From: a bacterium | GTDB lineage: Bacteria; Patescibacteriota; Minisyncoccia; UBA6257; HR35 | DNA: 60,539 bases | Direction of reading: 5' to 3' | Assembly (NCBI GenBank): GCA_041640295.1 | Contig: JBEQAR010000001.1 | Span: 82,453-142,991 of the forward strand | Shown here: positions 21,603-59,374 of the stretch, one piece after another | Numbering within the stretch: the stretch's first letter is position 1 | Layout: every line of letters starts with the position of its first letter | Program-made: the position numbers and the translations under genes | The notes under the pieces: model-generated | What the model was told of the DNA's origin: nothing | Database searches by the model: none | What the model saw: the letters and a program-made list of their open reading frames with translations, nothing else

Positions 21603-22757
21603 ATGAAAAAAGTGTTAATGATTGGTTGGGAATTACCACCATTTAATAGCGGTGGTTTAGGTATTGCTTGTTATTATTTAGCTTTAGCTTTAAGTAAAAA
21701 AGTTGATTTATTTTTTTCTCTTCCCTATCAGTTAAATATTAATTTAGCTCATTTCCCTTTCAAAATTATTTTTGCCAATAGTGTAGTAAAAAAAATTTCC
21801 TCTTATCAATTATTAAATTTTCCTATATCTTCTGAATTATTCGATCAAGTAATAACTTACGGAGAACGACTTCATCAAAAAATAAAAGATCTTGATCTTA
21901 ATTTTGATCTTATTCATGCTCATGATTGGCTAGGTAGTTTAGCTGGTATTTATCTAAAAGAAAAATTACATAAACCTTTAATTATTCATATTCATTCAAC
22001 CGAAATTGAGCGAACTGGAAATAATCCTAACTTAACGATATATTATTTAGAAAAAAAATCTTTCGAAACAGCAGATAGATTAATTGCTGTTAGTAATCTA
22101 ACAAAAAAAATAGTAGCTAACTTTTATGGTATTGATCAAAATAAAATTGAAACTGTACCTAATGGTATTGATTATGAAATTCCTCAATATAAAATTATAA
22201 AATTCATTCAAGATTTAAAAAACAGAAATTATAAAATTGTTTTATTTGTTGGTAGACTAGTTTTACAAAAAGGTCCAGATTATTTACTCCGAACCTTAAA
22301 ATATGTTTCTCAATATATACCAAAAGTGAAATATATTTTTGCTGGTAGTGGTGAGATGATAAATGATTTAATTAAAATTGCTTATTACGATCAAGTGATA
22401 GACAAAGTTATCTTTGCTGGTTTTTTAAGAGAAGAAGAATTATGGAGTGTTTATGCTTTGAGTGATATTCTTGTTGCTCCGTCAGTTTTTGATCCTTTTG
22501 GTTTAGTTCCTTTAGAGGGAGTGAAGTTTAAAAAACCAGTAATAATTTCTAAAACTACAGGAGTTGGGGAATATTTAAATAATTGTTTCAAAGTTGATTA
22601 TTGGGATATTAATGCTATGGTTAATTATATCGTTGGTCTTTTAAATTATAATGTTTTAAAAAAAGAGATGGCTGAAAATGCTTATCAAGAATTACCTAAG
22701 TTTAACTGGGAAGATAGAGCTGAAAATTTATTAAAAATTTACAATAATTTAGTATAA
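21603..22757 (+). CDS. GT4-type glycosyltransferase (glycogen-synthase-like)
   Basis: ..GWELPPFNSGGLGIAC.., ..HAHDWL.. and ..PSVFDPFGLVPLEG.. are present. Confidence 0.75.
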   Translation: MKKVLMIGWELPPFNSGGLGIACYYLALALSKKVDLFFSLPYQLNINLAHFPFKIIFANSVVKKISSYQLLNFPISSELFDQVITYGERLHQKIKDLDLNFDLIHAHDWLGSLAGIYLKEKLHKPLIIHIHSTEIERTGNNPNLTIYYLEKKSFETADRLIAVSNLTKKIVANFYGIDQNKIETVPNGIDYEIPQYKIIKFIQDLKNRNYKIVLFVGRLVLQKGPDYLLRTLKYVSQYIPKVKYIFAGSGEMINDLIKIAYYDQVIDKVIFAGFLREEELWSVYALSDILVAPSVFDPFGLVPLEGVKFKKPVIISKTTGVGEYLNNCFKVDYWDINAMVNYIVGLLNYNVLKKEMAENAYQELPKFNWEDRAENLLKIYNNLV

Positions 22758-22758
22758 A

Positions 22759-23937
22759 ATGCCAAGCGTTTGTTTTTATTTTAAAGTTCATCAGCCATTT
22801 CGATTGAAAAATTTTACTATTTTTGATATTGGTAATAATATTGATTATTTTGACGAAGAGAAAAATAAATTTTACTTAAAAAGAGTAACAGAAAAATGTT
22901 ATCTACCTATTTTAAAAACATTTTATGAATTAATTAAAGAAACTAATTATCGCTTTAAATTTTCAGCGGGCTTAACGGGTACTCTAATTGAACAATTAAC
23001 ATTATGGCAACCGGAAGTAATTGAATGGTGGCAAAAAATTGCTGCTACTGGTTGTGTTGAATTTACTGGCGAAACTTATTATCATTCATTAGCTTCTTTA
23101 TATTCTGAAGAGGAATTTAAATTTCAAATAAATCTTCACCGAAATTTAATTAAAAAAATTTTTTTACAAGAACCAAAAATTTTTTCTAATACTGAATTAA
23201 TTTATTTTGATGGCTTAGAAGATTTACTCTTTGATTTAGGATTTGAAGGAATAATTACTGAAGGAGTAGAAAATATTTTGGAATGGCGATCACCTAATTT
23301 TGTTTATTGGATGCCGAATAAAAAACTTAAAGTTCTTTTAAGAAATTATCGCTTATCTGATGATATTAGCTTTAGATTTTCTTCCCGTGATTGGTCAGAA
23401 TGGCCTCTAACAGCTGAAAAATTCGTTCATTGGTTAAATCAATTTAATGGTAATGGGGAGGTGATAAATCTTTTTATGGATTTTGAAACCTTTGGTGAAC
23501 ATCAATGGCCAGAAACTGGAATTTTTGATTTTATTATTAAATTAGTTTTTGAAATTATTAATCAAAAAGATTTAGAATTTAATACTTTATCGGAAGTAAT
23601 AAAAAAATACCCAGCAAGAGGTGAATATTCATCTACTTATCCTATTACTTGGGCTGACACTGAAAGAGATCTAACTGCTTGGTTGGGTAATGAAATGCAA
23701 CGGGATGCTATTCAAAGAATTTATAATTTAGAAAAAATTATTTTAAAACAATCCGAAGAAAAATTAATAACCTCTTGGCGAAAATTACAGACTGCTGACC
23801 ATTTTTATTATATGTGTACTAAATGGTTTGCTGATGGTGATGTTCATAAATATTTCAATCCCTACGATAATCCTTATGTGGCTTATCTTTCTTATCGAAA
23901 TGTTTTGGAAGATTTATATTTAAAATTATTAAGATAA
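22759..23937 (+). CDS. glycoside hydrolase family 57 protein (alpha-amylase / glucanotransferase type)
   Basis: FYFKVHQPFRL at the N-terminus, ..TGETYYHSLA.. and ..MDFETFGEHQW.. are present. Confidence 0.75.
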   Translation: MPSVCFYFKVHQPFRLKNFTIFDIGNNIDYFDEEKNKFYLKRVTEKCYLPILKTFYELIKETNYRFKFSAGLTGTLIEQLTLWQPEVIEWWQKIAATGCVEFTGETYYHSLASLYSEEEFKFQINLHRNLIKKIFLQEPKIFSNTELIYFDGLEDLLFDLGFEGIITEGVENILEWRSPNFVYWMPNKKLKVLLRNYRLSDDISFRFSSRDWSEWPLTAEKFVHWLNQFNGNGEVINLFMDFETFGEHQWPETGIFDFIIKLVFEIINQKDLEFNTLSEVIKKYPARGEYSSTYPITWADTERDLTAWLGNEMQRDAIQRIYNLEKIILKQSEEKLITSWRKLQTADHFYYMCTKWFADGDVHKYFNPYDNPYVAYLSYRNVLEDLYLKLLR

Positions 23938-23952
23938 TATAAATTTTCAAAA

Positions 23953-25203
23953 ATGACTATTGAGGAATTAAAAAAACAAATAGAATTAGAAGCAAGCAAG
24001 GGAGCAGAACAAACTTCTATTATTGATTTAGTAAATTATTTAATAATTTTTGGTTATAAATCACGTGCTTCAGATATCCATTTTCAACCAACTGAAGTTG
24101 GTATAAATATCAGATATCGTATTGACGGAATCTTATATACTTTCTTTACTTTTCCTAAATATCTTCAAGAAGAAATTATTTCAAGAATAAAAGTTGTTTC
24201 TGGTTTAAGAACTGATGAGCATAATACCCCTCAGGATGGTAGATTTAAATTTAGAATTCCTCAAGAAAATATTAGTTTTGATATTCGTGTTTCGGTTATG
24301 CCAACTTATTATGGTGAGAATGCTATTTTAAGGTTACTGATTCAAAAAGATGATATATTTGTTTTAGAAAAATTGGGTTTTTCTGAAGTAGACTTAAAAA
24401 AAGTTTACGAGGCTATTAAAAAACCTTATGGGATGATTTTAGTTACTGGACCAACTGGTTCAGGAAAAACTACTACTCTTTATTCAATCTTAAAAGTTCT
24501 CAACACCCCCGGAGTGTCGATTATTACTTTAGAAGATCCAATTGAATATTCAATTCCTGGTATAACTCAAATTCAAGTTAATCCTCAAGTTGGTTTAGTA
24601 TTTAGCAAAGGTTTAAGAGCTATTTTAAGACAAGATCCTAATATTATTATGGTAGGAGAAATTAGGGATCAAGAAACAGCTGATATTGCTGTTAACGCTG
24701 CTTTAACTGGACATTTACTTTTATCTACTTTACATACTAATGATGCTCCAACTGCCTTACCTCGCTTATTAGAAATGAACATTGAACCATTCTTAATTGC
24801 TTCAACTGTCAATATTGTTATTGCTCAAAGGTTAGTCAGAAAATTATGTGATAGTTGCAAAAAAGCTAAAAAATTAACTAATATTGAAGCAAAATCTTTA
24901 TTAGAAGGAATCGGGGAAGATTTAAGCTTAGAAAATATAAAAAAATTTAAACTTTATGAAATTTACGAGGCTCAAGGTTGTGAAATTTGTAATCAAGCAG
25001 GTTTTATGGGTAGAATTGGTATTTTCGAAGTATTAGTAATTAGTAAAAGAATTAAAGAGGCAATTATGAAAAGATATAATAGCGAACAAATAAAAAAAAT
25101 TGCTTTGGAAGAAGGAATGTCAACAATGATTCGTGATGGTTTTAATAAAGTAATCGCTGGTTTAACAACTATTGAAGAAGTCTTAAGAGTCATTCATGAG
25201 TAA
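23953..25203 (+). CDS. pilB: type IV pilus assembly ATPase (GspE/PilB family, short form)
   Basis: Walker A VTGPTGSGKTTTLY, ..IMVGEIRD.., ..GHLLLSTLHTND.. and a tetracysteine (CDSC...CEIC) are present. Confidence 0.9.
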   Translation: MTIEELKKQIELEASKGAEQTSIIDLVNYLIIFGYKSRASDIHFQPTEVGINIRYRIDGILYTFFTFPKYLQEEIISRIKVVSGLRTDEHNTPQDGRFKFRIPQENISFDIRVSVMPTYYGENAILRLLIQKDDIFVLEKLGFSEVDLKKVYEAIKKPYGMILVTGPTGSGKTTTLYSILKVLNTPGVSIITLEDPIEYSIPGITQIQVNPQVGLVFSKGLRAILRQDPNIIMVGEIRDQETADIAVNAALTGHLLLSTLHTNDAPTALPRLLEMNIEPFLIASTVNIVIAQRLVRKLCDSCKKAKKLTNIEAKSLLEGIGEDLSLENIKKFKLYEIYEAQGCEICNQAGFMGRIGIFEVLVISKRIKEAIMKRYNSEQIKKIALEEGMSTMIRDGFNKVIAGLTTIEEVLRVIHE

Positions 25204-26260
25204 AAAACCCCTAATTCTAAAATTAAGCTTAAATGATAAAATTCTGTTTTTAAGAAATTTAGCTCTACTTTTAAAAAGTGGTTTAAGTTTAAATGAATCT
25301 TTAATAACTTTAAAAAATTACCAAAAATCATCCAGTCTACAATATATAATTGATGAATTAGTAAATGATATTCAAAGAGGACAATTTTTAGCTTCAAGTC
25401 TATCTAAATTTAAATATATTTTTGGTGAATTTTTAATTTCTATTATTAAAGTTGGAGAAATTACTGGTAACTTAGTAGAAAATTTAGAAAAGTTATCTGA
25501 CGAATTAAGAAAAGCAGAAAGATTGAGAAAAAAATTTATCTCAACTATGATATACCCTGCTTTCATTATTGTCACTATGCTGATTATTATTGTTTTTGTT
25601 ATTTATTTTATCTTTCCTAAACTACTTCCTATTTTTAAAAATTTAAATATTGAATTACCTCTACCAACTAAAATTTTTCTATCAGTTTCAACTTTTATCA
25701 TTGATAATGGCTTATATATTATCGTATTTTCTATTAGTATTTTAATTTTAATAATTTTTCTAAATCGTTACTCAAAGATTAAATATTTTTTTGATCTAAT
25801 TCTTTTAAATCTTCCTCTTATCAAGGGAATGATAAAAAAATATACTTTAGCTCAATTTTCGCGCTCATTTGCTTTACTTTTAAGAAGCGGAATAAAGATT
25901 GTAGAAGCAGTTGAAATAGCTGGAAAAAGTTTAAATAATGAAGTTTATAAGCAAAACTTAATCCAAGCTGCTAATTCTGTTTTGGCTGGTCATAACTTTA
26001 GTGAATTTCTCGGTAAGTATCAAAAATTATTTCCTTATAATTTTATTAAGATGATAGAGGTTGGAGAAAAAACCGGTAATTTGGAACAAAATTTATTTTA
26101 CCTGAGTAATAATTATGAAGAAGAATTAGATATGGAAATAGAAAGATTTGTTAATGCTTTAGAGCCAATTATTTTAATTATTATGGCAGTTGTTGTTGGC
26201 TTTATGGCCATTTCAATTATCATCCCTATTTATGAATTATCAGATAAAATACAAGGTTAA
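25196..26260 (+). CDS. pilC: type IV pilus platform protein (GspF/PilC family)
   Basis: Two GspF-like repeats (..VGEITGNL.., ..VGEKTGNLEQNL..) and three hydrophobic segments. It overlaps pilB by 8 nt. Confidence 0.9.
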   Translation: MSKKPLILKLSLNDKILFLRNLALLLKSGLSLNESLITLKNYQKSSSLQYIIDELVNDIQRGQFLASSLSKFKYIFGEFLISIIKVGEITGNLVENLEKLSDELRKAERLRKKFISTMIYPAFIIVTMLIIIVFVIYFIFPKLLPIFKNLNIELPLPTKIFLSVSTFIIDNGLYIIVFSISILILIIFLNRYSKIKYFFDLILLNLPLIKGMIKKYTLAQFSRSFALLLRSGIKIVEAVEIAGKSLNNEVYKQNLIQAANSVLAGHNFSEFLGKYQKLFPYNFIKMIEVGEKTGNLEQNLFYLSNNYEEELDMEIERFVNALEPIILIIMAVVVGFMAISIIIPIYELSDKIQG

Positions 26261-36300: not shown

Positions 36301-37839
36301 ATGAAAAAATTTTTTATTCTTCTTTATAAATTAATCAATTCCTTGAATAAATTAGAAGCAATATTAATTTTTATAGGCTTAGCCTTATTCAGCCTATTCA
36401 TTATTATTCCTTTTGCTTATTTTTATCAAAAGATTTTTGCCGATGATCAACCTAGTTACCAAGGAATAATAAAAGAGGCTTTCTATCAACCAATTAATTC
36501 GCTCAATCCATTTTGGGCTGAAAATATAGCAGAAAAAACATTAGTTAACCTAATTTACGATAGCTTAGTTAGACCAGATGGAAAAGGAAATTATGAATTA
36601 GAATTAGCGGATAAAATAATTACTTTAGATAAGGGCTTAAAATATGAAATTACCCTTAAGGAAGCTTATTGGAGTAATGGAGAAAGAATTAATGTTTCCG
36701 ATGTTATTGAGTCTTTTAATTATTTTAAACTCTACTCTTCTAATAATTACTTAAAAGATTATTTTAAAAATATTACTTTAGAAAAAATTGATAATTACAA
36801 ATTTACCCTAACTCTACCGTTAAAAGATAATCTTTTTTTACAAAAACTTTCTTATATTAAGATTATTCCTGCAAAAATATGGTCAAAATATGAACCAAGT
36901 AATTGGAAAGAAAACGAAGAGGAGTTAATTAAAGTTAGTAGTGGACCTTTTGTTTTTTTTCAAAAAAATAACAATACCTATGAATTTATCCGCAATAATT
37001 ATTATCGACCTCGTCCTCATTTAGAAAAAGTTATTGTTTATAATTACCAAAAAATTGAAGAAGCTTATCAACAATTAAAAATAAAAAAAATAAATGCTAT
37101 TGGCGGGTTAATGCCTAACTTTTTAGATAATAATATCAGCCAAACTTTAAGAATAGAAAAAATAATTATTCCTAGAATTATTGGTCTATTTTTTAATGCT
37201 AATTCAGTTGATGAAAAGAAAGTAAATGAACTAAAAACTATTATTAACAGAAATGAAATTTTAACTGAGATTTTCAATTCCCGGTATGGTGAATTATCAG
37301 ATTCAATTTTCTCTCCTTCAATAAAAAAAATCTTATCTCTTCCACAAGAAGAAATTCAACAACCTATCGGAAATCTATCTCAATTTAATTTTAAAATTAT
37401 AGTACCTGATGGCTATTTGATGAACAAATTGGGTATTTACTTACAAAAAAAATATGGCTTAAATATTGAAATTAAGAGCTTAAACGAAATTAATAATTTA
37501 ATTATTCCTTCAAAAAAATATGAAGGTTTGCTGTATGGAATTTCCTATAATTTAATTCCTGATTTGAGATTATTTTTTGAAGATAAATCTTTATTAAATT
37601 TAACAAATAAATATGATCCAGAAATAATAAAATTAATTCAGGAGATAGAAATAGGAGATAATATTTCTCCTGAAACCTTTAAAAAATTAGACGAAAGAAT
37701 AAAAAATTTACCTATAATTTTTTTAGCTAATCTTTATTATGTTTATGTTGTTCCGAATAATTTAAGGAATTTTAATGTTTTTTATTTGAATGATCCAAGT
37801 GAAAAATTTGTTAAAATTGAAGAATGGTATTTAAAATAA
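36301..37839 (+). CDS. ABC transporter substrate-binding protein, family 5 (peptide/nickel type)
   Basis: N-terminal anchor, then ..LVNLIYDSLVRPDGKGNYELELADKI.. typical of SBP_bac_5. Confidence 0.7.
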   Translation: MKKFFILLYKLINSLNKLEAILIFIGLALFSLFIIIPFAYFYQKIFADDQPSYQGIIKEAFYQPINSLNPFWAENIAEKTLVNLIYDSLVRPDGKGNYELELADKIITLDKGLKYEITLKEAYWSNGERINVSDVIESFNYFKLYSSNNYLKDYFKNITLEKIDNYKFTLTLPLKDNLFLQKLSYIKIIPAKIWSKYEPSNWKENEEELIKVSSGPFVFFQKNNNTYEFIRNNYYRPRPHLEKVIVYNYQKIEEAYQQLKIKKINAIGGLMPNFLDNNISQTLRIEKIIIPRIIGLFFNANSVDEKKVNELKTIINRNEILTEIFNSRYGELSDSIFSPSIKKILSLPQEEIQQPIGNLSQFNFKIIVPDGYLMNKLGIYLQKKYGLNIEIKSLNEINNLIIPSKKYEGLLYGISYNLIPDLRLFFEDKSLLNLTNKYDPEIIKLIQEIEIGDNISPETFKKLDERIKNLPIIFLANLYYVYVVPNNLRNFNVFYLNDPSEKFVKIEEWYLK

Positions 37840-39140
37840 GAAAGTTAATATTAAAACCAAGAAATTTAATTTTAATTATTTCACCCAATAATTTGACTTT
37901 ATTAGAGGTAAAAAAAACTAAAAAAGAAATTAAAATTATCAATAAAATTGAGAAAAACGAAAACTATTTTTTAGGCTCCTCACTTCTCAAAAATAAATTA
38001 AATGAATTTTTAAAATTAATCCAAGAAAAATATTATGGTGAACAAATCAATGTAGTCTTAAATTTACCCAATTTTTTTATTCAAAAATTTAATCTACCAA
38101 ACTTAGACAATGATAAAAATTTAAGTATTATTGAAAGTCGAATCAAAGAAGAACTACCAATTAACATCGAAAAGTATTTCTGGAGAGTTTATTTTAATCC
38201 TAATAATTATGAGAATGTTATGGTTATTTTCTATGAGAAAGAAATTTTAGATGAATTGACTAACAATTTGTTATTAAATAACTTTTTACCTATTGAATTG
38301 CAACCTATATTTTCATCAATCATCAGTTTTTTGAAAGAAAAATATGCTTTAGCTTTTGATAAAAGTTATTTAATTTTGAATTTTTTCAAAAATGTTCTCA
38401 CAACAATTATTTACGAAAATGGATTAATAACTAATATTTTTAGCGAATATATAGAATCAATCAATAAAAAAGAAATAATTGATCGAATTATTAATTCTTC
38501 ATTAAGAAGTTTAAATTCACCTTTAGATTTAATTTTTATTCTGACCGATGAGGATTTTGAGTTAGATTTTCTTCTTAATAAAAATATTAGAATTATTGAC
38601 ATTACCAAAGAAACTGGTTTATCACAATTTGATATTCAAGCCTTATCAATAATTAATCCTCAAAATAAAGCTTTCTTATCGGAATTTTCTTTAAATGTTT
38701 ATAATTTAGAAAAAGATATTGCTCTTTATAACACTAATAATGTTTTGAAATTATGGTTATTAATTAGTTTAATTTTAGGAATTATTATCAATCTCAGTTT
38801 ATCAGCAATTTGGTTTTATTTTAGCAAAGAGAAAGAAAAAATATCAGCTGAAATTAAATTAACTTCTGGTTATAATTTGGAAGAATTAAGGGATTTTATT
38901 GCTAAAGTAAAAAGTCGAACCCTAAGTTTAAAAATTTATCAAAACTTAGATATTTTAAATAGTTTAAAAAATTATAAAATCGTCTCAATAGAATTTAATA
39001 ATCAATCAGCAAAAATTGTTATTGAAGAAAGTGATAATAAAAAAAGAGAGAGTCTCTTGAACTATTTAAAAAATAATTTAAAATTAAATAATATTAACAC
39101 TGAGGGTAATTTTATTAACATTAACATTGATTTTCAATAA
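37824..39140 (+). CDS. hypothetical protein with one internal TM segment; possibly a PilM/PilN-like assembly protein
   Basis: The architecture (a cytoplasmic region of about 310 aa, TM LKLWLLISLILGIIINLSLSAIWFYF, and a tail of about 100 aa) resembles a PilM-PilN fusion. No motif-level support. Confidence 0.3.
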   Translation: MVFKIRKLILKPRNLILIISPNNLTLLEVKKTKKEIKIINKIEKNENYFLGSSLLKNKLNEFLKLIQEKYYGEQINVVLNLPNFFIQKFNLPNLDNDKNLSIIESRIKEELPINIEKYFWRVYFNPNNYENVMVIFYEKEILDELTNNLLLNNFLPIELQPIFSSIISFLKEKYALAFDKSYLILNFFKNVLTTIIYENGLITNIFSEYIESINKKEIIDRIINSSLRSLNSPLDLIFILTDEDFELDFLLNKNIRIIDITKETGLSQFDIQALSIINPQNKAFLSEFSLNVYNLEKDIALYNTNNVLKLWLLISLILGIIINLSLSAIWFYFSKEKEKISAEIKLTSGYNLEELRDFIAKVKSRTLSLKIYQNLDILNSLKNYKIVSIEFNNQSAKIVIEESDNKKRESLLNYLKNNLKLNNINTEGNFININIDFQ

Positions 39141-39358
39141 TGATTAGAGGAGCATTTTGTCAAATTTGTCAAAAAGGAAGATTTAAAGTAACAAGAAGAA
39201 TAAAAACTCGAAGTAAGTATAATCCAACAGTTTCTTATTTTCAATATCCTAATTTGCAATGGTTTAAATTACCCAATGGAAAAAGAATAAAAATTTGTAC
39301 TAAATGTAGAAAAAGGCTTTTAAGGGAAAACTTATCAAATTTAAAATTAAAAATCTAA
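39140..39358 (+). CDS. rpmB: ribosomal protein bL28 (probable)
   Basis: Small and basic. ..CQICQKG.. near the N-terminus and ..PNLQ.. resemble bL28. Confidence 0.6.
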   Translation: MIRGAFCQICQKGRFKVTRRIKTRSKYNPTVSYFQYPNLQWFKLPNGKRIKICTKCRKRLLRENLSNLKLKI

Positions 39359-40165
39359 ATCTTCCTCTAGGTGTTTCAAAACTAAATTAGGATTTTCTTG
39401 GGCTTCTTGAAGATTATTAATTAATTCTTCAAAAAGTTCATCAAATTCTGTTGGTAATCTTTTCTTCTTATAAGGATTAGCCCAAGAAATTATTTGATTA
39501 TAAATATAAGGATGCCATTTGCCAATTTCTTTGATTTTCTGCGATATTTCCCTTACAAAACCATTAGCTATAAGAATCTTATCTGCTCGTTTTTGTCTTA
39601 TTTGAATTGCTTCATTAAGGGGAGAATCTAAGAAAAAGTCACATTTTTTTAAAATTGATTCAAAAGAACTTCCGGCTAACTTTTCTGATTGTTCATAAGC
39701 AATACCTAAGGTAACATAATAAGCTTGTTCTAAAGAATCAATAATTTCTGGATCAGACTCAATAATTTCTGGTCGTTGTTGAAGATATTCTCGATAAACC
39801 GCTAAGGCAACATAAGCTTTTTCTCTTATATTTAATTCTTTTTCAATATTAAAATTCATCATTAACTTTGCTAAATGATCTGGTACAATAATCACTGGTA
39901 ATTCCTTAATGCCCAATTCTTTAGCAGCTAAAAACCTGTGTTGGCCATCGATAATAATATATTTATCTTCAGTTTTTTCTTTAACAACAATCAGCGGAAC
40001 TAAAAATCCGATTCTTTCAATTGAAGTTATAAGATGCTTAATATGATATTGACTTGGTTTTCTTTGATGAGAGATTACTTCTAAATTTTCTATTGGCACA
40101 AGAGTAATAGTTAAATTATTTTTTTTATACGGATCAGAAAAAGTTAATTTTCCTTTGGGAGGCAT
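39347..40165 (-). CDS. ParB-like N-terminal domain protein with the DGQHR motif (DndB/DpdB-like)
   Basis: ..PLIVVKEKTEDKYIIIDGQHRFLAAKELGIKELPVIIV.. carries an exact DGQHR signature in a ParB/Srx fold context. Confidence 0.7.
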   Translation of the reverse strand: MPPKGKLTFSDPYKKNNLTITLVPIENLEVISHQRKPSQYHIKHLITSIERIGFLVPLIVVKEKTEDKYIIIDGQHRFLAAKELGIKELPVIIVPDHLAKLMMNFNIEKELNIREKAYVALAVYREYLQQRPEIIESDPEIIDSLEQAYYVTLGIAYEQSEKLAGSSFESILKKCDFFLDSPLNEAIQIRQKRADKILIANGFVREISQKIKEIGKWHPYIYNQIISWANPYKKKRLPTEFDELFEELINNLQEAQENPNLVLKHLEEDLDF

Positions 40166-40231
40166 TTTATTTATTTTTCATTAAAATAATTATATAATTA
40201 TAAACTAATTTAAAATAATTTCAAAATAAAA

Positions 40232-43200
40232 ATGAAAAATATGAAAGTTAGGGCTGAATATCTTAAAATTTGCCCCATTGATAAAAATCGAGCTGGTATT
40301 GATGAAATTATTAAATTTAAAGAATGTTTATCAGATTATCATCGTTTCGGCTTAGATTATCCAAAGTTATTAAAAAATAACAAGTATTGTCACTTATTAA
40401 AAGAAAGCAGCTTTCTTTGTCAAGTGGAGAATAATTTATTATTATTTAAAAAATATTTCAAAAAATTAACCAACTATCAACCATTTCATCTTCAAATTTA
40501 TTGGGCAAAAAGATTGTTAAAGGGTGAAAGTTTTAGTATTATTGCCCCAACTGGTTTTGGGAAATCAACTTTTGGAATTATTTTTTCTCTCTTCTCTGTT
40601 GAAATTTTAAAAGAAAAAAAAATTTACTACTTAGTTCCTACCAAAATATTAATTAATGAAATAGAAAAAAGATTTAATAATTTTAATAAAAGAAACAAAG
40701 TTAAAATATTAGCAATCCAAGATAGACAAAAATTTTCAGATGATTTTGATATTCTGATTACTACTACGCAATTTTTACATAAAAATTTTGAATTGCTTCC
40801 CAAAAATTTTAAATTCATTTATATTGATGATGCTGATTCAATGATTAGACAACCTAAAAATATTGATAAAGTTTTAAAATTAATAGGTTTTAATGATGAA
40901 GAAATCGAAACTGCTTTTAAGGTGATTGATACTAAAAGAAAAAAGGATTATCAAAACGCAGAAATTTTGAAAAAAAATATAGATTTTACTAATAAGGGGA
41001 AATTAGTAATTTCATCAGCAACTTTAACACCAAGAACTAAAAGAATTAATCTTTTTCGAGAATTATTAAATTTTGAAATCGGCTCTTCACAAACATATTT
41101 AAGAAATATTGTTGATTTTTATGAAAATTTAGAAAATAAGAATGATATTTTTCAACAATCTTTAAAGTGGATTAAAAAACTTGGCGCAGGAGGATTTGTT
41201 TTTCTTTCTGATGATTATCGAAAAGATGATTTAAATTACTATCTTAATTTTTTAGCCCAAGCAGGAGTGAAAGCTATTTCTTATGAAAAATTCAACAAAA
41301 GAAACCGTGAATTATTTGAATTAAATGAAATTGATATTGTAGTTGGTTTTTCTAATATTCGTAATCCTCTAACTCGTGGTATTGATTTACCACATGTTGT
41401 TCGTTATGCTTTATTTTTAGGTATACCAAAATTTAAATTACCACTAAGAATTTCCTATTCTCCCAAGAATTTACTTTTAATTATTTTAACCTTTCAAAAA
41501 TATTTAAAGGAAAGTTATGAAGATATATTAACTGATATTAAGTTTTTAAAAAAATACAGTTTTTTGAAAGAAGACAAAGTTTTAGAAAACAAAAATTTAA
41601 AAAATAAAATTGAAATTATTCAAAATAAAATTAATGGATTTTTAAATGATCCAGAGTTTTTAAACAAAGTGAAAAACGACCCTAATTTAAATATTATTAA
41701 TGAAAATGGCTTAAACTTTCTATTAATTCCTGATGCTCGCGGTTATATTCAAGCTTCAGGAAGAACTTCTCGTTTATATCCTTTAGGTCTTAGCCAAGGA
41801 TTAAGTATAGTTTTAGTTGATAATGAAAAGCTTTTTAATAGCTTGAAAAATAAATTAAGAATTATTGGTTATAAGATTGAATTTTTAAATGATAACAATA
41901 AATTAGAAGAGGTGATTAAAAAGGTTGATGAAGATCGAAAATTAATTAAAAAAATTATTAAAGAGGATGAAAAAATTTTCTTTTATGATCCAATAAAAAC
42001 TGTTTTGATTATTGTTGAATCACCTACTAAAGCAAAAACTATTGCTAATTTTTTTGGTAAACCAGCTAAAAGAATTTACAACAATTTTTTACTTTATGAA
42101 GTAAGTTTAGGTAATTATTTGATAAATATTGTCGCTACCTTGGGACATTTCGTTGATTTAGTTTATAACGAGGGAATTTATGGAGTTAAAAAAAATAATA
42201 GCGAATTTATACCAATTTTTGAACCACTGAAAACTTGTTCAAATTGTGGCCGACATACAGAAATTAACCTTAATCAATGCCCTATTTGTAATTCACAAAA
42301 TTTCTTTAATAAAGAAAAATTAATAGATATTTTAAGAGCCAAAAGTAATGAATTTCAAGAAATATATTTAATGACTGATCCTGATATTGAAGGCGAGAAA
42401 ATTGCTTTTGATTTATTTGTTTATCTCTATCCTTTTAATCAAAATATTAAAAGAATTGAATTGCATGAAATCACTAAAGAAGAATTTTTAAATAAATTCA
42501 AAACACCGAGAAAATTAAATTTAAATTTAGTTTGCTCACAAATTACCAGAAGAATTGCTGATCGTTGGATAGGTTTTTCTTTAAGCCAAGAATTACAAGA
42601 AGAATTTAAAAATTTAAATTTATCAGCAGGTCGAGTTCAAACCCCTGTTTTAGGTTGGTTGATAAATAATGATTTAGAACGAAAGAATAATAAAATTTAT
42701 TTCATTAGAGCTTTTTTCAATCAAAATAATTATCTTGATTTTAAAATCACTAATAAAGATCTAATTAAAGAAATAAGAAAACTGAAAAATAATTTACAAA
42801 TCAAGGTAGAAATTAATAATGAAAAAATAGAAACCCTTAATCCACCACCTCCCCTTCAAACAAGTGAATTATTAAAAGAAGCTTGGAATTATTTAAAACT
42901 TGATCCTCAAACAACAATGGCTTTAGCTCAAAATTTATTTGAACGTGGTTATATTACCTATCATCGAACCGATTCGATTTATGTCTCTGAATTTGGTCGT
43001 GATTTAGCTTATGAATTCTTGAATAAAAATAATGAATTATCACTTTTTTATAGAAAATCTTGGGGGAAACCAGGTACCCATGAATGCATTCGGCCGACTA
43101 AACCTTTAACTACAGAGGAAATTATAGAACAGTCATTACTTAATCAAACAGAATTATTATCAAGAAGACATTTAAGACTTTATGAATTAATTTTAAAAAG

Positions 43201-43735
43201 ATTTATAGCCTCTCAATGTAAACCAACAAAAGTTAAAAAATTAATTCTTAATTTCAAACTTCTTTCTAATAACAAAACCTTAATAAAAGACAAAAAGGAA
43301 ATTATCTCAGAGATTGTTGAAGAAGGCTTTAATAAATTTTACTCAAATTTTTATTTTTTTAATATTGAGCCTAAAATTTATAATATTGAATCTATTAAAA
43401 TTAATCGTTTTTCTGCTGTTCCACCTTATACTAATGCATCGATTATTGATGAAATGAAAAAAAAGGGATTAGGTAGACCATCAACTTATTCTTTGATTAT
43501 TCAAACTATTTTAGATAGAAAATATGCTATTATCAAAAGTGGTTATTTAATTCCCACCAATCAAGGAAAAAAAATTTATTATTATTTAATCGAAAAATAC
43601 AAAGATTTGGTCGAAGAACAATTCACTAAAAAATTAGAATCAGAAATGGATAAAATTGAAAAAGGTCGAATTAATTATCAACAAATCTTATTTAATCTAT
43701 TTAGTAGATTATTTAAAGATGAGAATAAAAAATAA
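40232..43735 (+). CDS. rgy: reverse gyrase (SF2 helicase-like domain fused to a type IA topoisomerase)
   Basis: A single 1167-aa ORF. The helicase part has motif I APTGFGKST, motif II DDADS and motif VI QASGRTSRL. The topoisomerase part has Toprim IIVESPTKAKTI and TDPDIEGEKIA, zinc ribbon CSNCGRH...CPICNS and active-site GYITYHRTDS. Confidence 0.9.
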   Translation: MKNMKVRAEYLKICPIDKNRAGIDEIIKFKECLSDYHRFGLDYPKLLKNNKYCHLLKESSFLCQVENNLLLFKKYFKKLTNYQPFHLQIYWAKRLLKGESFSIIAPTGFGKSTFGIIFSLFSVEILKEKKIYYLVPTKILINEIEKRFNNFNKRNKVKILAIQDRQKFSDDFDILITTTQFLHKNFELLPKNFKFIYIDDADSMIRQPKNIDKVLKLIGFNDEEIETAFKVIDTKRKKDYQNAEILKKNIDFTNKGKLVISSATLTPRTKRINLFRELLNFEIGSSQTYLRNIVDFYENLENKNDIFQQSLKWIKKLGAGGFVFLSDDYRKDDLNYYLNFLAQAGVKAISYEKFNKRNRELFELNEIDIVVGFSNIRNPLTRGIDLPHVVRYALFLGIPKFKLPLRISYSPKNLLLIILTFQKYLKESYEDILTDIKFLKKYSFLKEDKVLENKNLKNKIEIIQNKINGFLNDPEFLNKVKNDPNLNIINENGLNFLLIPDARGYIQASGRTSRLYPLGLSQGLSIVLVDNEKLFNSLKNKLRIIGYKIEFLNDNNKLEEVIKKVDEDRKLIKKIIKEDEKIFFYDPIKTVLIIVESPTKAKTIANFFGKPAKRIYNNFLLYEVSLGNYLINIVATLGHFVDLVYNEGIYGVKKNNSEFIPIFEPLKTCSNCGRHTEINLNQCPICNSQNFFNKEKLIDILRAKSNEFQEIYLMTDPDIEGEKIAFDLFVYLYPFNQNIKRIELHEITKEEFLNKFKTPRKLNLNLVCSQITRRIADRWIGFSLSQELQEEFKNLNLSAGRVQTPVLGWLINNDLERKNNKIYFIRAFFNQNNYLDFKITNKDLIKEIRKLKNNLQIKVEINNEKIETLNPPPPLQTSELLKEAWNYLKLDPQTTMALAQNLFERGYITYHRTDSIYVSEFGRDLAYEFLNKNNELSLFYRKSWGKPGTHECIRPTKPLTTEEIIEQSLLNQTELLSRRHLRLYELILKRFIASQCKPTKVKKLILNFKLLSNNKTLIKDKKEIISEIVEEGFNKFYSNFYFFNIEPKIYNIESIKINRFSAVPPYTNASIIDEMKKKGLGRPSTYSLIIQTILDRKYAIIKSGYLIPTNQGKKIYYYLIEKYKDLVEEQFTKKLESEMDKIEKGRINYQQILFNLFSRLFKDENKK

Positions 43736-44270
43736 CAACTATTATTACAAAAATTTGACAGTAAAAAAATGTAATAATGGTTTAGGTCTTTTTGCTAAAA
43801 AAAATTTCAAACGCGGAGAAATTATTTTAGAATTTATAGGAAAAATTGTTCATCGGTCAGAAATCGATAAAGTCAAAAATGAAAAAACAAAAAAATTAAT
43901 CGATGATTATTCAATACAAATTGATAAAGATATATTTTTATTAGGAACGGGTCAGGATAAAAAAATTTATGATGATTTTATTAATCATTCTTGTGATCCT
44001 AATGCTTATGTATTTATTAATGGTAATAAAGTTTTGTTAATTGCCTTAAAGAATATTAAAAAGAACGAGGAGATAACCTATGATTATTCAACAACTATGT
44101 ATAATGATTCCTGGTCAATAAAATGTCATTGTGGTTCGAAAAAATGTCGGGGTTATATTAAAGAATTTAAATATCTTCCTTCAAAAATTAAAATGAAGTA
44201 TTATCATTTGGGCATTTTGCCTTCTTATATTGTAGATATATTTTTTAAGAGACGGACTAAGAAAGGATAA
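43719..44270 (+). CDS. SET-domain protein-lysine methyltransferase with a post-SET Cys cluster
   Basis: ..GLGLFAKKNFKRGEIILEF.., NHSCDPNAYV, EEITYDYS and CHCGSKKCRGYI are present. ATG 43719 overlaps the rgy 3' end by 17 nt; the track start 43656 is further inside rgy. Confidence 0.85.
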   Translation: MRIKNNNYYYKNLTVKKCNNGLGLFAKKNFKRGEIILEFIGKIVHRSEIDKVKNEKTKKLIDDYSIQIDKDIFLLGTGQDKKIYDDFINHSCDPNAYVFINGNKVLLIALKNIKKNEEITYDYSTTMYNDSWSIKCHCGSKKCRGYIKEFKYLPSKIKMKYYHLGILPSYIVDIFFKRRTKKG

Positions 44271-44568
44271 AATCTTCAATTTTAATTTGAGTAAAGTAAT
44301 TTTTATAACCAACCTTTTTTTTATAGCGAGTTTTAGGTTTAAATTTAATAATCTGAATTTTCTTCTTAATCTGTTTAACTATTTTCCCTTTCACCTTGAT
44401 ATTATCCAAGAATGGTTTACCAATTAATAATTTTTGTCCATCGAAGAATAATAATACCTTATCAAACAACACATTACTTTCAACTTCTCCTTTGATTTTA
44501 TTAACCAAAATAAGATCGTCTTTTTTAACTATATATTGTTTGCCACCGGTTTCAATAACTGCTAACAT
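44257..44568 (-). CDS. rplU: ribosomal protein bL21
   Basis: MLAVIETGGKQYIVKKDD.. is a canonical bL21 N-terminus. Confidence 0.9.
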   Translation of the reverse strand: MLAVIETGGKQYIVKKDDLILVNKIKGEVESNVLFDKVLLFFDGQKLLIGKPFLDNIKVKGKIVKQIKKKIQIIKFKPKTRYKKKVGYKNYFTQIKIEDFILS

Positions 44569-44582
44569 TTTTTAGGAATATA

Positions 44583-44888
44583 TTAATAATTCAAGAAAAA
44601 TAATTTAAGAAAAATAAAAAAGCTAATTAAAAATAAAAAGGTGTTAATAATATCGGCAATTCTTTTTTTTAGTCCCCATAAGGTTAAAATAAAATTATAA
44701 AATATAAAAAGAGTAAATGCAATAGGGTATAAATAAAGTAAATACTTATCAGCTAATAATATTTTTTGGGGATAGGGTTTGTAATAATAGACAACTTGAT
44801 TCACCTGAATAAAATTAACACCTATTAACCATACAAGCCAGATTGTTGAAATCAAAATTAAAGTAAAATAAATATCAATTTTTTTCAT
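44583..44888 (-). CDS. small membrane protein (101 aa)
   Basis: Three hydrophobic segments. The start overlaps the murG stop. Confidence 0.4.
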   Translation of the reverse strand: MKKIDIYFTLILISTIWLVWLIGVNFIQVNQVVYYYKPYPQKILLADKYLLYLYPIAFTLFIFYNFILTLWGLKKRIADIINTFLFLISFFIFLKLFFLNY

Positions 44889-53282: not shown

Positions 53283-53297
53283 AATTACAAATGTAGT

Positions 53298-53372
53298 GGT
53301 GGACGACGGGGCTCGAACCCGCAACCTGAGGCTCCACAGGCCTCCGCTCTAACCAATTGAGCTACGTCCACC
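53298..53372 (-). tRNA. tRNA-His (anticodon GUG) with genomically encoded G-1
   Basis: Hand fold: G(-1)+GTGGACG acceptor paired to CGTCCAC+C73, anticodon stem GAGGC/GCCTC, loop CTGTGGA, T-loop TTCGAGC. No CCA. Confidence 0.9.
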
Positions 53373-54926
53373 ATCTTTCCTTTTTAAATTATAATATAAA
53401 CTTGAGAGAGACCAAAGTTGAATTGGCGAGCCTTCGTAGGTTAATTTTTCAGCTGAACTTAATTCACTCATATATCCTGGCGCACCCATTTTAAGAAGAT
53501 TTTTAATAGCAGCATTTTTAAGTTTTTTTATATAAAATTTATACTTAACTTTATTCAAATCTTTCAAAACATAATAGGCTAAATTATTTAACCAAAACCA
53601 GGAATCTCCCTGATGATAGCTTGTTGGATCTTCACCTGTATAGTTTTTTTGGAAATTAGGATGAGTAATACTTAAAGAACTAAATCCACCCCAATCAAGA
53701 TAATTGTTTTTAATTAAATTGTCAAATATTGTTTCCCATTCTTCTTGTTCAAAAAAATTTTTATCTAAAAAATAACAAAAAAATAAATTAGGTGTTAAAA
53801 ATTCTTCTTCGGGGTATTTTTTTGAGTATATTTTATTTTTGATATAAATCTTAAATTTTTTTGCTTCATTTAATAAATCAAGTCTAATTAAAGAGAGATA
53901 ATAAAGAAAATCAATTTCGAGTGCCCGTTTTCTTTCTAAAGTATCCATCCAGGTTGATTTTGGCGGTAAATCATTTTCGTAAATCTTAAATAGCTTTACC
54001 CATTTATCTAAAAATTCTAAAAGTTTATTTTTTTCTTTTTTGATTTTTTCCTTATTTAAATTAACAATCAAGAGAGGTAAAGTATCAGCAGATAAAATAG
54101 TATTTTCTTCTTTGTTAAATTGCCATATTGATTCTAAATGAGTTAAATAATAATCAAAAATTTTTTCTTTAACAAAATCAAAGTTTAAAAATAATAATGA
54201 TATCAATTCGTCTCTAAACCATCTTTGAGGAAACCAAGGTAAACCAGCTTTAAAACCATAATCAATGGAATATAAAGATAAAATTCTTCTTAAAACAAAA
54301 TAGGCAAATTTATTTTTGTTTGTAAAATCAAAAGAAAAATCAGGTTTTTTATGAGTTGAAAAAATTTTTAAATAATTTACATAACCTTCGAAAGCTTGAT
54401 TAATTTCATTTTGATAAAAGGTTGATTTTCTTTGGTGATCATAATCATAATAAACATTAATTTTTCGATTAACAAATCTTAGCTCGCCTTCATAAAAAAT
54501 ATTAAAATCAATTCCGTAATCATTAATAATTAAAAATGATTTTTCTTGTGTAATTATTTTAAAATTATCACCGACAATTTTTGTTTCATAAAGTTTTCGA
54601 TTATCCAAATCTATTTTAATAAAAATAGGCTGATTAGAATGCAAATTAAACCCCTGAGAATCTAAATAAAGGGAAATTTTATTTTTTTTAGAAATTAGAT
54701 CAAATCTTTTTTCATTAATAACTTCTATTTTTTGAATTTGTTCATCAATATTTATTCTTTCAATTAATTTATAAAAGTTGTTATCAGTCGCTATCCAATA
54801 ACCAAAATAAACACTGCGTTGCGTCAGTGAATCAATAAACCAGTGATTAGAAGAAATTAAACTAATAAAGGGTTGATCAATATTGAAAGTGTGTTGACTG
54901 TCGAGTTCTTGATAGTTAATAATCAT
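53349..54926 (-). CDS. amylo-alpha-1,6-glucosidase / glycogen-debranching-enzyme C-terminal-domain protein
   Basis: ..GLPWFPQRWFRDELISL.. and ..YHQGDSWFWLNN.. are present. The last 24 nt overlap tRNA-His on the same strand. Confidence 0.7.
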   Translation of the reverse strand: MIINYQELDSQHTFNIDQPFISLISSNHWFIDSLTQRSVYFGYWIATDNNFYKLIERINIDEQIQKIEVINEKRFDLISKKNKISLYLDSQGFNLHSNQPIFIKIDLDNRKLYETKIVGDNFKIITQEKSFLIINDYGIDFNIFYEGELRFVNRKINVYYDYDHQRKSTFYQNEINQAFEGYVNYLKIFSTHKKPDFSFDFTNKNKFAYFVLRRILSLYSIDYGFKAGLPWFPQRWFRDELISLLFLNFDFVKEKIFDYYLTHLESIWQFNKEENTILSADTLPLLIVNLNKEKIKKEKNKLLEFLDKWVKLFKIYENDLPPKSTWMDTLERKRALEIDFLYYLSLIRLDLLNEAKKFKIYIKNKIYSKKYPEEEFLTPNLFFCYFLDKNFFEQEEWETIFDNLIKNNYLDWGGFSSLSITHPNFQKNYTGEDPTSYHQGDSWFWLNNLAYYVLKDLNKVKYKFYIKKLKNAAIKNLLKMGAPGYMSELSSAEKLTYEGSPIQLWSLSSLYYNLKRKDGGRSSIG

Positions 54927-56680
54927 TTAATTTTTTCTAAAGCAATATTATAAAGTTCAAAATAGTTACTAATCAATTTTTCCCAAGAACAAAATTTAGC
55001 AATTCGTCGTGCTTCTAATTTATTTTCTACTCGAGAACTTTTGTTTAATTTTGCAATTCCTAACATAATATTAGTTAATTCTTCAACTACTTCTGAATCG
55101 CGCCTATTTTTTCTTTTAATAAAATATAGTCCAGGATAATCTTTGTTAAGTTCTATATTTTTTTTAACATAATCGCCAAAACCAGTTAAATCAGTAGTGA
55201 CAGTAATAACCCCGCTGGCAATTGTTTCTAAGGGAGTGTATCCCCAAGGTTCATAAAGTGAAGGGAAAATTCCTAAATGACAGCCAACTATTAATTCATC
55301 ATAATTTAAATTAATCAAACCATCACCACGTCTGGCATAAATAGGGTAATAAATAATTTTTACCTTATCTTCTGGTAAATTATACAAACCAACCATCTTG
55401 ATTAATCTTAAAATTGGATTGTCCTCATCAACAAGATGAGTTGATAAAGGATAGTAGTTATTAACAGTTAATCTTTTAATTATTTTTTGAATTTCTAAAA
55501 ATTCTTCTTTAGTAAATAAAGTTTCGGAGAGTATTCTTTCTTTATGAATTAAATAATGAATTATCCGACTTTTGATTTCAGGTAAAATATCTTCAATCTT
55601 CTCTTCTAAATTACGGTAAACATTTAAATTATTTAGTAATGTAGGTTCAATTCCTTTGATTTCTGCAGGTATTAATATTAAAACCAAAATTGTTGGATCA
55701 TTTTCTGTTAATTTCTTATTCAATTCTGATAAGGATCTTATGAAAATATCAATACCTTTATTTCTTATTTCTTGTCGGCCACTGATAAAATAGATTAAAC
55801 TATTTTTAGTCTCCAATCGATAGTAAGGTGAAAAAAAATAAAGAAAAAAATCTCTTATTAAATCACGATTTTTTCGATGGGCATAACTTATTTCTTCAAC
55901 TGTTAAAAATTTACTTAAATTTATGCCATTTGGTAAAATAAAATCTGGTTTTCTACCTAAAATATATTCAGCTTCAATTGCTAAAACATTACTAACAACT
56001 GTGAAAAAATTTGAATATTTAGCGGTAATTTTTTCTAAAGTATGTTTTGCTTCAATCCCGTATCTTATTGCTTCTTTATCAGGATCAAAAGAGCCTAAAG
56101 AATCCCAAAAATTTATACCTGATTCCGAAAGGGTTCTTCCTAAAGAAGTTGCATGGGTGGTAAAAATAGAAATAAAAGATAGCTTTTCAAATAAAATAAC
56201 TGCACCTGCTAACCATTCATGAAGATGAAGAATTTTTTTGGGCTGATTAATTTTTTCTTCAAAAAATTTTAAAAAAATACTAACAGCTTTTGACCAAGCT
56301 AATGGATAGTTGTAATCATCACCAGTTCTAAGGCTGTCTATTCGATAATTTGCCCAAAGTTCGTATTTTAAAGCGTTGATATTATTTAAAAAAATCTGGA
56401 AATCAATTAAAAAACATTTAGGTTTAGAATCAATTAACCACTCACCATAATAAACATCAAAACCTAATTTTTGACATTCTTTAATAATATCAGTAAAAAT
56501 ATCCGGTGGATCTAATTTTGAAAATTCTAAACTACTTCGATTAGGTAAATAAGGTCCAATAACATAATAATTACCCTTAAAATAATCTTTTATGTATTTG
56601 GCTTTTTCTTTAATTACTGTATAAATTCCACCAACTTGATTAGCTACTTCCCAACTAACTTCAAATAAAATTTTATCCAT
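54923..56680 (-). CDS. GT3-family (eukaryote-type) glycogen synthase
   Basis: MDKILFEVSWEVANQVGGIYTVIKEKAKY.. matches the animal/fungal glycogen synthase N-terminus. ..HLHEWLAG.. and ..PSLYEPWGYTPLE.. are also present. Confidence 0.8.
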   Translation of the reverse strand: MDKILFEVSWEVANQVGGIYTVIKEKAKYIKDYFKGNYYVIGPYLPNRSSLEFSKLDPPDIFTDIIKECQKLGFDVYYGEWLIDSKPKCFLIDFQIFLNNINALKYELWANYRIDSLRTGDDYNYPLAWSKAVSIFLKFFEEKINQPKKILHLHEWLAGAVILFEKLSFISIFTTHATSLGRTLSESGINFWDSLGSFDPDKEAIRYGIEAKHTLEKITAKYSNFFTVVSNVLAIEAEYILGRKPDFILPNGINLSKFLTVEEISYAHRKNRDLIRDFFLYFFSPYYRLETKNSLIYFISGRQEIRNKGIDIFIRSLSELNKKLTENDPTILVLILIPAEIKGIEPTLLNNLNVYRNLEEKIEDILPEIKSRIIHYLIHKERILSETLFTKEEFLEIQKIIKRLTVNNYYPLSTHLVDEDNPILRLIKMVGLYNLPEDKVKIIYYPIYARRGDGLINLNYDELIVGCHLGIFPSLYEPWGYTPLETIASGVITVTTDLTGFGDYVKKNIELNKDYPGLYFIKRKNRRDSEVVEELTNIMLGIAKLNKSSRVENKLEARRIAKFCSWEKLISNYFELYNIALEKIK

Positions 56681-59302: not shown

Positions 59303-59374
59303 TGGGTGCGGTAGGGATCGAACCTACGACCTCGTCTTTATCAGAGACGCGCTCTACCACTGAGCTACGCACCC
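59303..59374 (-). tRNA. tRNA-Ile (anticodon GAU)
   Basis: Acceptor GGGTGCG/CGCACCC, anticodon stem CGTCT/AGACG, loop CTGATAA, T-loop TTCGATC. No CCA. Confidence 0.9.

Follow-up and report, generated by a model that had tools for sequence, protein, structure and literature searches.

Textbooks treat reverse gyrase as the marker of life at high temperature, and we know of hardly any partner or controller of this enzyme, in bacteria especially. Among prokaryotic methyltransferases with a SET domain are Go1-SET of Methanosarcina, which acts on MC1, the Chlamydia SET enzyme, which acts on Hc1/Hc2, and RomA/LegAS4 of Legionella. Here we analyze a locus on contig JBEQAR010000001.1, from a thermophilic member of the Patescibacteria (CPR) of the Parcubacteria/Minisyncoccia type, in which a reverse gyrase gene (rgy) lies head-to-head with the gene for a protein of the ParB/sulfiredoxin (Srx) fold, called ParB-like in what follows, and is followed by the gene for a SET methyltransferase. 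The whole stretch of DNA that was analyzed, 60,539 nucleotides long, is referred to as the window; L-numbers and P-numbers are the locus and protein labels of this analysis.

The interpretation that we favor, with moderate confidence, is that of an ancestral and probably co-regulated pair of rgy and the ParB-like gene, to which a lineage-specific SET gene, co-transcribed with rgy, has been added, with functions that we infer from sequence and predicted structure. The older layer would consist of the lineage's own gyrase placed head-to-head with the ParB/Srx-fold protein over a short shared promoter region, and the younger one of an MLL-like SET/post-SET enzyme that fills the slot 3' of the gyrase in one genus- or family-level lineage. 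This interpretation is carried by the distribution of the two adjacencies: in the gyrase tree both branches of the deepest CPR split contain the ParB-like/rgy pair, which is also the sole adjacency (within five genes on either side) surviving between the two deepest CPR subclades, while SET follows rgy only in one clade that is syntenic over about 20 kb. The original prediction made for this DNA had seen in the three genes a linked unit, whose conservation the survey of gene order does not bear out.

Organization of the locus

The features of the locus, taken from the open reading frame (ORF) list and from matches to domain models, are as follows.

39140-39358, plus strand: gene for a 72-aa protein, convergent with the ParB-like gene (ORF list)
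39347-40165, minus strand: gene for the ParB/Srx-fold protein, 272 aa (ParB_N match)
40166-40231, no strand: AT-rich divergent spacer of 66 bp, promoter region
40232-43735, plus strand: reverse gyrase gene (rgy), 1167 aa (TIGR01054)
43719-44270, plus strand: gene for a SET plus post-SET methyltransferase, 183 aa (Pfam SET)
44257-44568, minus strand: bL21 gene, convergent with the SET gene

The three central genes, whose identities and coordinates had been given correctly in the original prediction (the ORFs are as listed there, and the ParB_N, TIGR01054 and SET matches are above cut-off), form a compact unit with a convergent gene on each outer side. The 3' end of the ParB-like gene overlaps the 72-aa gene by 12 nt, and that of the SET gene overlaps the bL21 gene by 14 nt. 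The 66-bp spacer and the 17-nt overlap between the rgy stop codon (43735) and the SET ATG (43719) are also as had been described. GC content is flat across the locus region (0.23-0.25) and shows no step at the locus, with local values of 24-31% and an overall value of 26.7% in the window. The exact gyrase protein was found on seven contigs from different sequencing runs, and its neighbors were identical in all six that were examined. Since the same arrangement was assembled independently six times and GC is flat, misassembly, a concern raised beforehand, and a co-binned insert are excluded.

Conservation of the ParB-like/rgy pair and of its spacer

Gene order was surveyed in 80 gyrase loci from one-genome-per-species contigs, spanning 10 kb on either side, whose ORFs were searched with the three window proteins, and in metagenomes that were scanned with the ParB-like family as the seed. 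The ParB-like gene was found divergently upstream of rgy in L007, L008, L011 and L012, and the pair was also present in 13 of the metagenome loci most similar to the window (L100-L105, L107, L108, L111, L113, L116, L117 and L120), that is, well beyond the local lineage. The spacers between the two genes measure 52-168 bp, the exception being L012, which has an inserted DoxX-like ORF. What lies beyond the ParB-like gene varies by lineage and can be the 72-aa gene, a type IV pilus ATPase gene or a 216-aa ORF. The paired state is missing in one CPR subclade, where an FBA aldolase or an M48 peptidase precedes rgy; in the one genome of this subclade that was checked, a 556-kb contig carries both genes some 60-70 kb apart, with the ParB-like gene adjoining RelA/SpoT. 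Over the whole ParB-like family, rgy is the most frequent neighbor (30 of 102 loci). These results point to an ancestral pairing that resists rearrangement and in which adjacency is not obligatory, and make a functional linkage between the ParB-like protein and reverse gyrase likely. The pairing would date back to the common ancestor of the sampled gyrase-bearing Patescibacteria and would have outlived rearrangement on both of its outer sides.

The minus strand of the window spacer holds TTGAAA-16-TATAAT (40224 to 40197), which faces the ParB-like gene, has its -35 hexamer 8 nt from the rgy ATG and is the best promoter-like match (11/12) within 39000-44700. A palindrome at 40186-40201, composed of ATAATTAT followed by ATAATTAT, contains back-to-back TATAAT boxes, and a TATAATTATA-type motif recurs in the orthologous ParB-like/rgy spacers (about 20 spacers compared). 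A small GACC(T/C)TTAAT-like element turns up repeatedly in some lineages and is absent from the window's clade. Operators were sought by the enrichment of 8- and 10-mers in 160-bp regions preceding the ParB-like gene, taken from 59 non-redundant loci. Only AT-rich palindromes of the TATAAT type stood out, and no specific binding site; because the background was mostly coding, this enrichment reflects promoters and not a specific operator. Overlapping divergent promoters could couple the expression of the ParB-like gene and rgy, and the coupling itself might be sensitive to supercoiling.

Reverse gyrase

The rgy product scores 1085 bits against the equivalog model TIGR01054 (cut-off 471.7), covers model positions 29-1168 of 1172 and consists of an SF2 helicase-like half fused to a type IA topoisomerase half. 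Its ATPase, Toprim and catalytic motifs (Walker A APTGFGKST, DDAD, SAT, QASGRTSR, Toprim E596, DPDIEGE and the catalytic GYITYHRTDS) are invariant in 34 sequences of the CPR clade, and the internal, second zinc finger CxxC...CxxC is intact (C669/C672/C683/C686) and likewise invariant. The N-terminal finger is not canonical and reads C14-P-I-D17 ... C32-L-S-D35 (window 40232-40440, residues 1-70). According to the alignment, the change from CPxC...CxxC to CPxD...CxxD, by which the second and fourth Cys became Asp, extends throughout the CPR clade (P0002-P0056), and it explains that the Pfam model zf_Rg (PF17915), found in most other gyrases, was undetected in all CPR-clade gyrase matches. Judging from these residues, the finger may have been lost or may have turned into a Cys2Asp2 metal site. 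The enzyme had been presented as apparently fully functional, which, as far as motifs can tell, is right only at the level of the catalytic ones.

Around 55 CPR gyrase sequence clusters are 45-73% identical to the window protein, and the named relatives are labelled Parcubacteria, Patescibacteria, Minisyncoccia or 'bacterium HR35'. Outside CPR (Aquificota, Thermodesulfobacteriota, WOR-3 and archaea) identity is at most 41%. All sampled CPR gyrases form one clade in a neighbor-joining tree, and the phylogeny shows no contaminant-like branching. Public metagenome-assembled genomes (MAGs) of hot-spring Patescibacteria already annotate reverse gyrase, and one paper on Patescibacteria and reverse gyrase counts gyrase-positive hot-spring MAGs in passing.

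The ParB-like protein and its family

The ParB-like protein matches Pfam ParB_N (PF02195) with 37.8 bits (cut-off 26.3). The domain spans residues ~20-95 and includes the HQRKPS and DGQHR motifs (IIDGQHRF); the family alignment shows no variation in DGQHR, a motif of the GxxR type, or in the Gln of the first ParB motif. The C-terminal half is all-helical and uncharacterised, and contains LMMNFNIEKELNIREK and WHPY...Q..S..NPYKKKR. In an AF2 model (pLDDT 89.7), too, the N-domain has the ParB/Srx fold and the half after it is all-helical; the top Foldseek matches of the model are the CTPase clamps ParB, Noc and KorB, while sulfiredoxin, SerK and SbnI match the N-domain only. At the sequence level the protein scores below the NCBIfam cut-offs of parB_part (TIGR00180; 47.5 bits, cut-off 58.45), Noc, SerK and SbnI, and there is no ParA gene in the gene tables or recurrent neighbor families of the ParB-like loci examined. 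The score against TIGR00180 and the lack of a ParA neighbor led us to reject its identity as a canonical ParB. When it was compared by hhalign with a provisional Spo0J sequence, residues 44-103 only were aligned; a manual extension of this alignment would place NFNIE at the ENLQR hydrolysis position.

In the interpretation of an ancestral pair, the ParB-like protein would be a nucleotide-binding and DNA-associated protein of the ParB/Noc/KorB type, for which hydrolysis is uncertain. It would share its substrate with the gyrase, namely chromosomal DNA at high temperature. At the promoter it could serve as a switch or regulator; alternatively, as a clamp or barrier, it could influence where positive supercoils accumulate.

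The family is compact, with only 29 clusters (50% identity) at E <= 1e-30 among 1.8 billion representatives; at E <= 1e-10 the representative library gave 157 clusters. Identity over the full length is 58-84% in the 120 best clusters and across Patescibacteria, Aenigmatarchaeota and WOR-3, and in the same genome pairs the ParB-like protein changes more slowly than reverse gyrase (80% vs 66%, 72% vs 57% and 68% vs 51% identity). The family's named carriers comprise Minisyncoccia/Parcubacteria, Aenigmatarchaeota (62-64% identity; the surrounding genes are clearly archaeal), WOR-3/Candidatus Hydrothermia (on contigs of 0.8-1.7 Mb) and short contigs binned as Thermodesulfovibrio or Caldiserica. 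Ten distant relatives scanned against Pfam yielded no informative domain fusion. Searches of 72,556 plasmids, 50,697 phages and the IMG/VR viral contigs gave no match to the family, and the matches in PHROGs were generic ParB N-domains only; an origin of the gene in a mobile element was considered and rejected on these empty plasmid, phage and viral searches.

Other neighbors of the ParB-like gene recur in the family loci. Of the 102 loci, 26 (L007, L100-L107, L115, L122, L135-L141, L156, L161-L171 and L176; the window is not among them) have tRNA-Ser genes less than 400 bp away from the ParB-like gene or from the ParB-like/rgy pair, and 41 of the 87 tRNAs in these loci are tRNA-Ser. These tRNA-Ser genes have the anticodons gga, tga and gct and are mostly on the same strand, and in several CPR loci tRNA-Ser(tga) starts 3-9 nt past the rgy stop codon. 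An integration hot spot, co-transcription or some functional connection with serine might lie behind the enrichment; a paper on SepRS/SepCysS in Parcubacteria was weighed as a possible link between serine kinase and tRNA and offered no support. Where rgy is unpaired, a RelA/SpoT (p)ppGpp synthetase/hydrolase gene takes the same divergent upstream position in five CPR loci (L112, L118, L121, L129 and L180). Type IV pilus genes for the T2SSE ATPase and the T2SSF platform protein stand beside the ParB-like gene in one CPR subclade (L008, L011, L108-L118 and L129), and an archaeal T2SSE/T2SSF set precedes it in Aenigmatarchaeota (L087). The pilus genes of the window are at 23953-26260, about 13 kb from the ParB-like gene.

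The SET methyltransferase gene

The SET protein matches Pfam SET (PF00856) with 77.8 bits (cut-off 22.4; E = 1e-21). It carries the motifs INHSC and EEITYDYS, conserved in orthologues, and the post-SET motif CHCGSKKC (CxCxxxxC), in which C157 and C159 are invariant and C164 nearly invariant among orthologues. Its closest solved relatives are of the MLL type, with the SET domain of MLL1/KMT2A as the best (E = 4e-21). The N-termini of the orthologues (MK...YYKNL) support ATG 43719, and not an upstream TTG, as the start codon, so that the start lies within the overlap, as predicted, and not downstream of it. SET enzymes had been described as rare in bacteria; this does not especially apply to the present type, of which 277 relatives were found in our search. 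A C-terminal tail, EFKYLPxxIKxKYYxLGILPxYI (residues ~148-175), follows the post-SET motif and is kept even in homologues at 37-53% identity, which suggests a family-specific element for substrate binding or docking.

Among the matches listed for the 80 loci, the window's own species was the only one with SET beside rgy. When the closest gyrases (64-73% identity) were looked up directly, the trio was recovered also in L092, L093, L094, L096/97 and L098. This clade is syntenic over ~20 kb, in the order UvrC, SecG, SBP, the 438-aa protein and the 72-aa protein, then ParB-like, rgy and SET, then bL21, the 101-aa protein, MurG and FtsW, and beyond these uS9, uL13, DnaG, RpoD and DnaX. The SET orthologues (70-82% identity) are all directly downstream of rgy and belong to this clade only. 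The next-closest SET protein (41% identity) follows FtsE/FtsX in a genome with 45% GC, without a gyrase nearby, and in more distant CPR loci the gene 3' of rgy encodes ArgRS or tRNA-Ser. Since the trio is confined to the syntenic clade and other CPR loci have ArgRS or tRNA-Ser in this place, SET is a lineage-specific addition.

The junctions between rgy and SET among orthologues measure -17, +5, -20, -4, +2 and +29 nt and leave no room for a terminator. Co-transcription is therefore likely, indeed almost certain, and the tight link that had been proposed stands; the co-translation read from the overlap does not, because the junction ranges from -20 to +29 nt and overlap-based coupling is not conserved. 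The SET gene would be read through from rgy, and a basic DNA-binding protein or the gyrase itself would be a plausible substrate of its product. Our literature search found no paper that combines reverse gyrase with a SET domain.

Neighboring genes, host genome and habitat

The 72-aa gene (39140-39358, plus strand) encodes a cysteine-rich protein, and its place next to the ParB-like gene is conserved throughout the window's subclade as well as in L007. The gene had been labelled bL28; no match was obtained at E <= 0.01 in Pfam or NCBIfam, and its PNLQ motif suggests a divergent bL28. The 438-aa protein (37824-39140) and the membrane-like 101-aa protein (44583-44888), neither of which had a match in the Pfam scan, keep their positions across the window's syntenic clade. 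Elsewhere in the window (19826-23937 and 53349-56680) are genes for a PolX with a PHP domain, a GT4/GT5-type glycosyltransferase, a GH57 enzyme, a glycogen synthase of the eukaryote/archaea type (PF05693) and a GDE_C debranching-type enzyme, PolX and GH57 having been correctly predicted; taken together, these genes point to a set for glycogen metabolism within a reduced genome.

One of the paired loci, L008 (JAUQQL010000009.1; noted together with protein P0049), was deposited as part of a 'Thermodesulfobacteriota' MAG. It has 28% GC and a CPR gene order, and its ParB-like protein is 99% identical to one from Minisyncoccia; the contig is probably mis-binned. By analogy, the 'Deltaproteobacteria' gyrase in the CPR clade and the short 'Thermodesulfovibrio' and 'Caldiserica' contigs may be mis-binned too.

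A hot habitat had been predicted, and the provenance of relatives agrees with it. Sister genomes (KatS3mg MAGs) come from hot-spring sediment at Katase, at 52 C. The ParB-like family is present at Great Boiling Spring at 60 and 70 C (Ga0197142, Ga0197143), a further carrier is probably from Guaymas Basin, to judge by the Ga0190363 project prefix that it has in common with a Guaymas MAG, and every traced habitat of the family is geothermal. The four tRNAs of the window (6044-6225, 53296-53372 and 59303-59374) have 58-67% GC (mean 63%) vs 26.7% for the window, a large excess that is consistent with growth at elevated temperature. The window proteins have an IVYWREL fraction of 0.439 and an (E+K)/(Q+H) ratio of 3.9, compositional indices that are only supportive of heat because they are inflated by AT-richness.

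Alternative explanations

Several observations weigh against an ancestral, functionally linked pair. Among the matches listed, some 70 gyrase loci outside CPR had neither SET nor the ParB-like gene within 10 kb. Adjacency is not required, because in the FBA/M48 subclade the two genes are apart and the genome that was checked still has both of them. A seven-gene pilus block is likewise conserved between the window and L008, and general synteny is fairly high, so that a retained adjacency is no proof of a functional tie. The ParB-like gene of Aenigmatarchaeota and of WOR-3/Hydrothermia has only unrelated genes around it. As for mechanism, a conserved operator is indistinguishable from ordinary AT-rich -10 boxes in the ParB-like/rgy spacers, CTPase activity is doubtful because the residues aligned with ENLQR are not conserved, and conservation over the full length with many invariant polar residues would equally fit an enzyme that does not act on DNA.

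A less likely alternative is that only common descent keeps the three genes together, and that their functions are unrelated and their expression is coordinated no more than by chance. These small genomes largely preserve their gene order, the two genes of the pair are separable, and the other neighbors of the ParB-like gene are numerous (RelA/SpoT, tRNA-Ser, pilus and housekeeping genes). However, such neutral synteny has to be set against the survival of this adjacency alone between the two deepest CPR subclades, the presence in about 20 distinct loci of a shared spacer of less than 170 bp with overlapping promoter elements, and the retention of both genes in the one unlinked genome examined.

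A bolder proposal, which we hold to be unlikely, is that the ParB-like family is a second heat-tied family, horizontally exchanged among hot-spring Patescibacteria, DPANN and WOR-3/Hydrothermia, which co-occurs with reverse gyrase and acts with it on DNA. The protein would then be a nucleotide-gated clamp that recruits gyrase, bounds supercoiling domains or senses topology at the promoter; the pair in Patescibacteria would be the fossil of this partnership, to which SET would add lysine methylation in one lineage.

Rather unlikely, in our judgment, is the three-gene chromatin-topology module, in which methylation by SET of the gyrase, of the ParB-like protein or of an HU-like protein would be intrinsic to the system. 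The compact unit bounded by convergent genes, the overlapping or nearly abutting rgy/SET junction in every clade member and the maintenance of the trio in at least six species-level relatives, with rgy identities of 64-73%, would fit such a module. However, synteny is complete over ~20 kb in all six, so that the trio adds no information; among the matches listed, SET is not beside rgy in other CPR lineages or in the ~70 non-CPR loci; the next SET relatives are found in unrelated contexts, and by the rgy tree the insertion of SET is a derived trait of one subclade.

We also weighed the possibility that the ParB-like protein is a small-molecule or tRNA enzyme, such as a SerK/SbnI-like kinase or one with a tRNA-Ser-related activity, and that its link to rgy is incidental. 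Its top sequence matches in the PDB are indeed the free serine kinase SerK and SbnI, its very strong conservation over the full length is what was noted above for a non-DNA enzyme, and tRNA-Ser genes with three anticodons are frequent nearby. This is nonetheless improbable in view of the scores against SerK (36.8 bits, cut-off 380) and SbnI (26.8 bits, cut-off 350), of a similarity limited to an N-terminal core of ~75 residues (76-94 residues superpose), of the alignment of the catalytic Glu30 of SerK with the invariant Gln34, as in ParB proteins, and of whole-model matches that favor ParB, Noc and KorB.

The DGQHR motif had been taken in the original prediction as typical of DndB/DpdB, and there is a faint similarity to GmrSD_N/DUF262, but the motif is not diagnostic inside ParB_N, the sole Pfam match above cut-off; neither NCBIfam (E <= 0.01) nor PADLOC gave a match to a DndB, DpdB or DGQHR-domain model, and no dnd/dpd genes appeared in the gene tables and neighbor families examined across the 102 family loci, which makes a regulator of a dnd/dpd system encoded elsewhere highly improbable. 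Finally, although one would not expect a reverse gyrase in a genome of low GC and reduced gene content, the chance that the gene stems from contamination or was recently inserted from a co-binned thermophile is negligible, because its GC equals that of the flanks, the flanks are identical in six independent assemblies, and it belongs to a CPR-specific clade of ~55 clusters whose gene order is conserved with CPR housekeeping genes; the gyrase is resident in a thermophilic lineage of Patescibacteria.

Significance of the locus

The gene families involved are known, but the ParB-like/gyrase pair, the CPxD...CxxD variant and the geothermal, cross-domain ParB-like family appear to be undescribed; in papers that mention both, no link between reverse gyrase and ParB-like proteins was apparent from titles and abstracts. 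The ParB/Srx-fold family offers a concrete, expressible candidate for a partner or regulator of reverse gyrase. If it is true that the family is restricted to thermophiles, it would open a new approach to the topology and stability of DNA at high temperature, and if it is not, the pair would be a case of ordinary conserved gene order. A gyrase clade proper to Patescibacteria, with an altered metal site and a relative living at 52 C, bears on the role of the enzyme outside hyperthermophiles, while the failure of SET as a member of a module guards against over-interpreting a lineage-specific neighbor.

Comparison with known systems

With the classical reverse gyrases of Thermotoga maritima and Aquifex and with Sulfolobus TopR1, the window enzyme shares the full-length fusion, all the motifs and the internal zinc finger. 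It differs from them in belonging to a separate Patescibacteria clade (at most 41% identity), in the CPxD...CxxD site at the N-terminus of the whole clade, and in its hosts, which have small genomes and for which the sole traced site of a gyrase-bearing relative, at 52 C, is not hyperthermophilic.

The ParB-like protein resembles ParB, Noc and KorB in its N-terminal ParB/Srx fold, in DGQHR (vs GERRxR), in the Gln of the first motif and in the helical domain that comes next. Unlike them, it has no helix-turn-helix recognisable by sequence, no ParA partner and no ParB-type C-terminal dimerisation domain, it falls below the parB_part cut-off and it does not conserve ENLQR; in addition, its family is far more conserved than is usual for ParB proteins and does not occur in the collections of plasmids, phages and viruses that were searched. 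To SerK and SbnI, its top PDB sequence matches, it is similar in size (~250-270 aa) and in its two-domain layout, but the N-terminal core alone aligns, the catalytic Glu is replaced by Gln and the scores are about ten-fold under the cut-offs. The DGQHR pentapeptide and membership in the wider ParB/DUF262 superfamily are shared with DndB/DpdB, from which the protein is set apart by the lack of a model match and of a dnd/dpd context.

Finally, the SET protein is, like the prokaryotic SET enzymes, a small stand-alone protein with NHSC and ELxFDY-like motifs and a post-SET CxCx4C, and it has a weak similarity to the LegAS4 model. It differs from those enzymes in that its nearest solved relatives are eukaryotic and of the MLL type, and in having a conserved C-terminal tail of its own.

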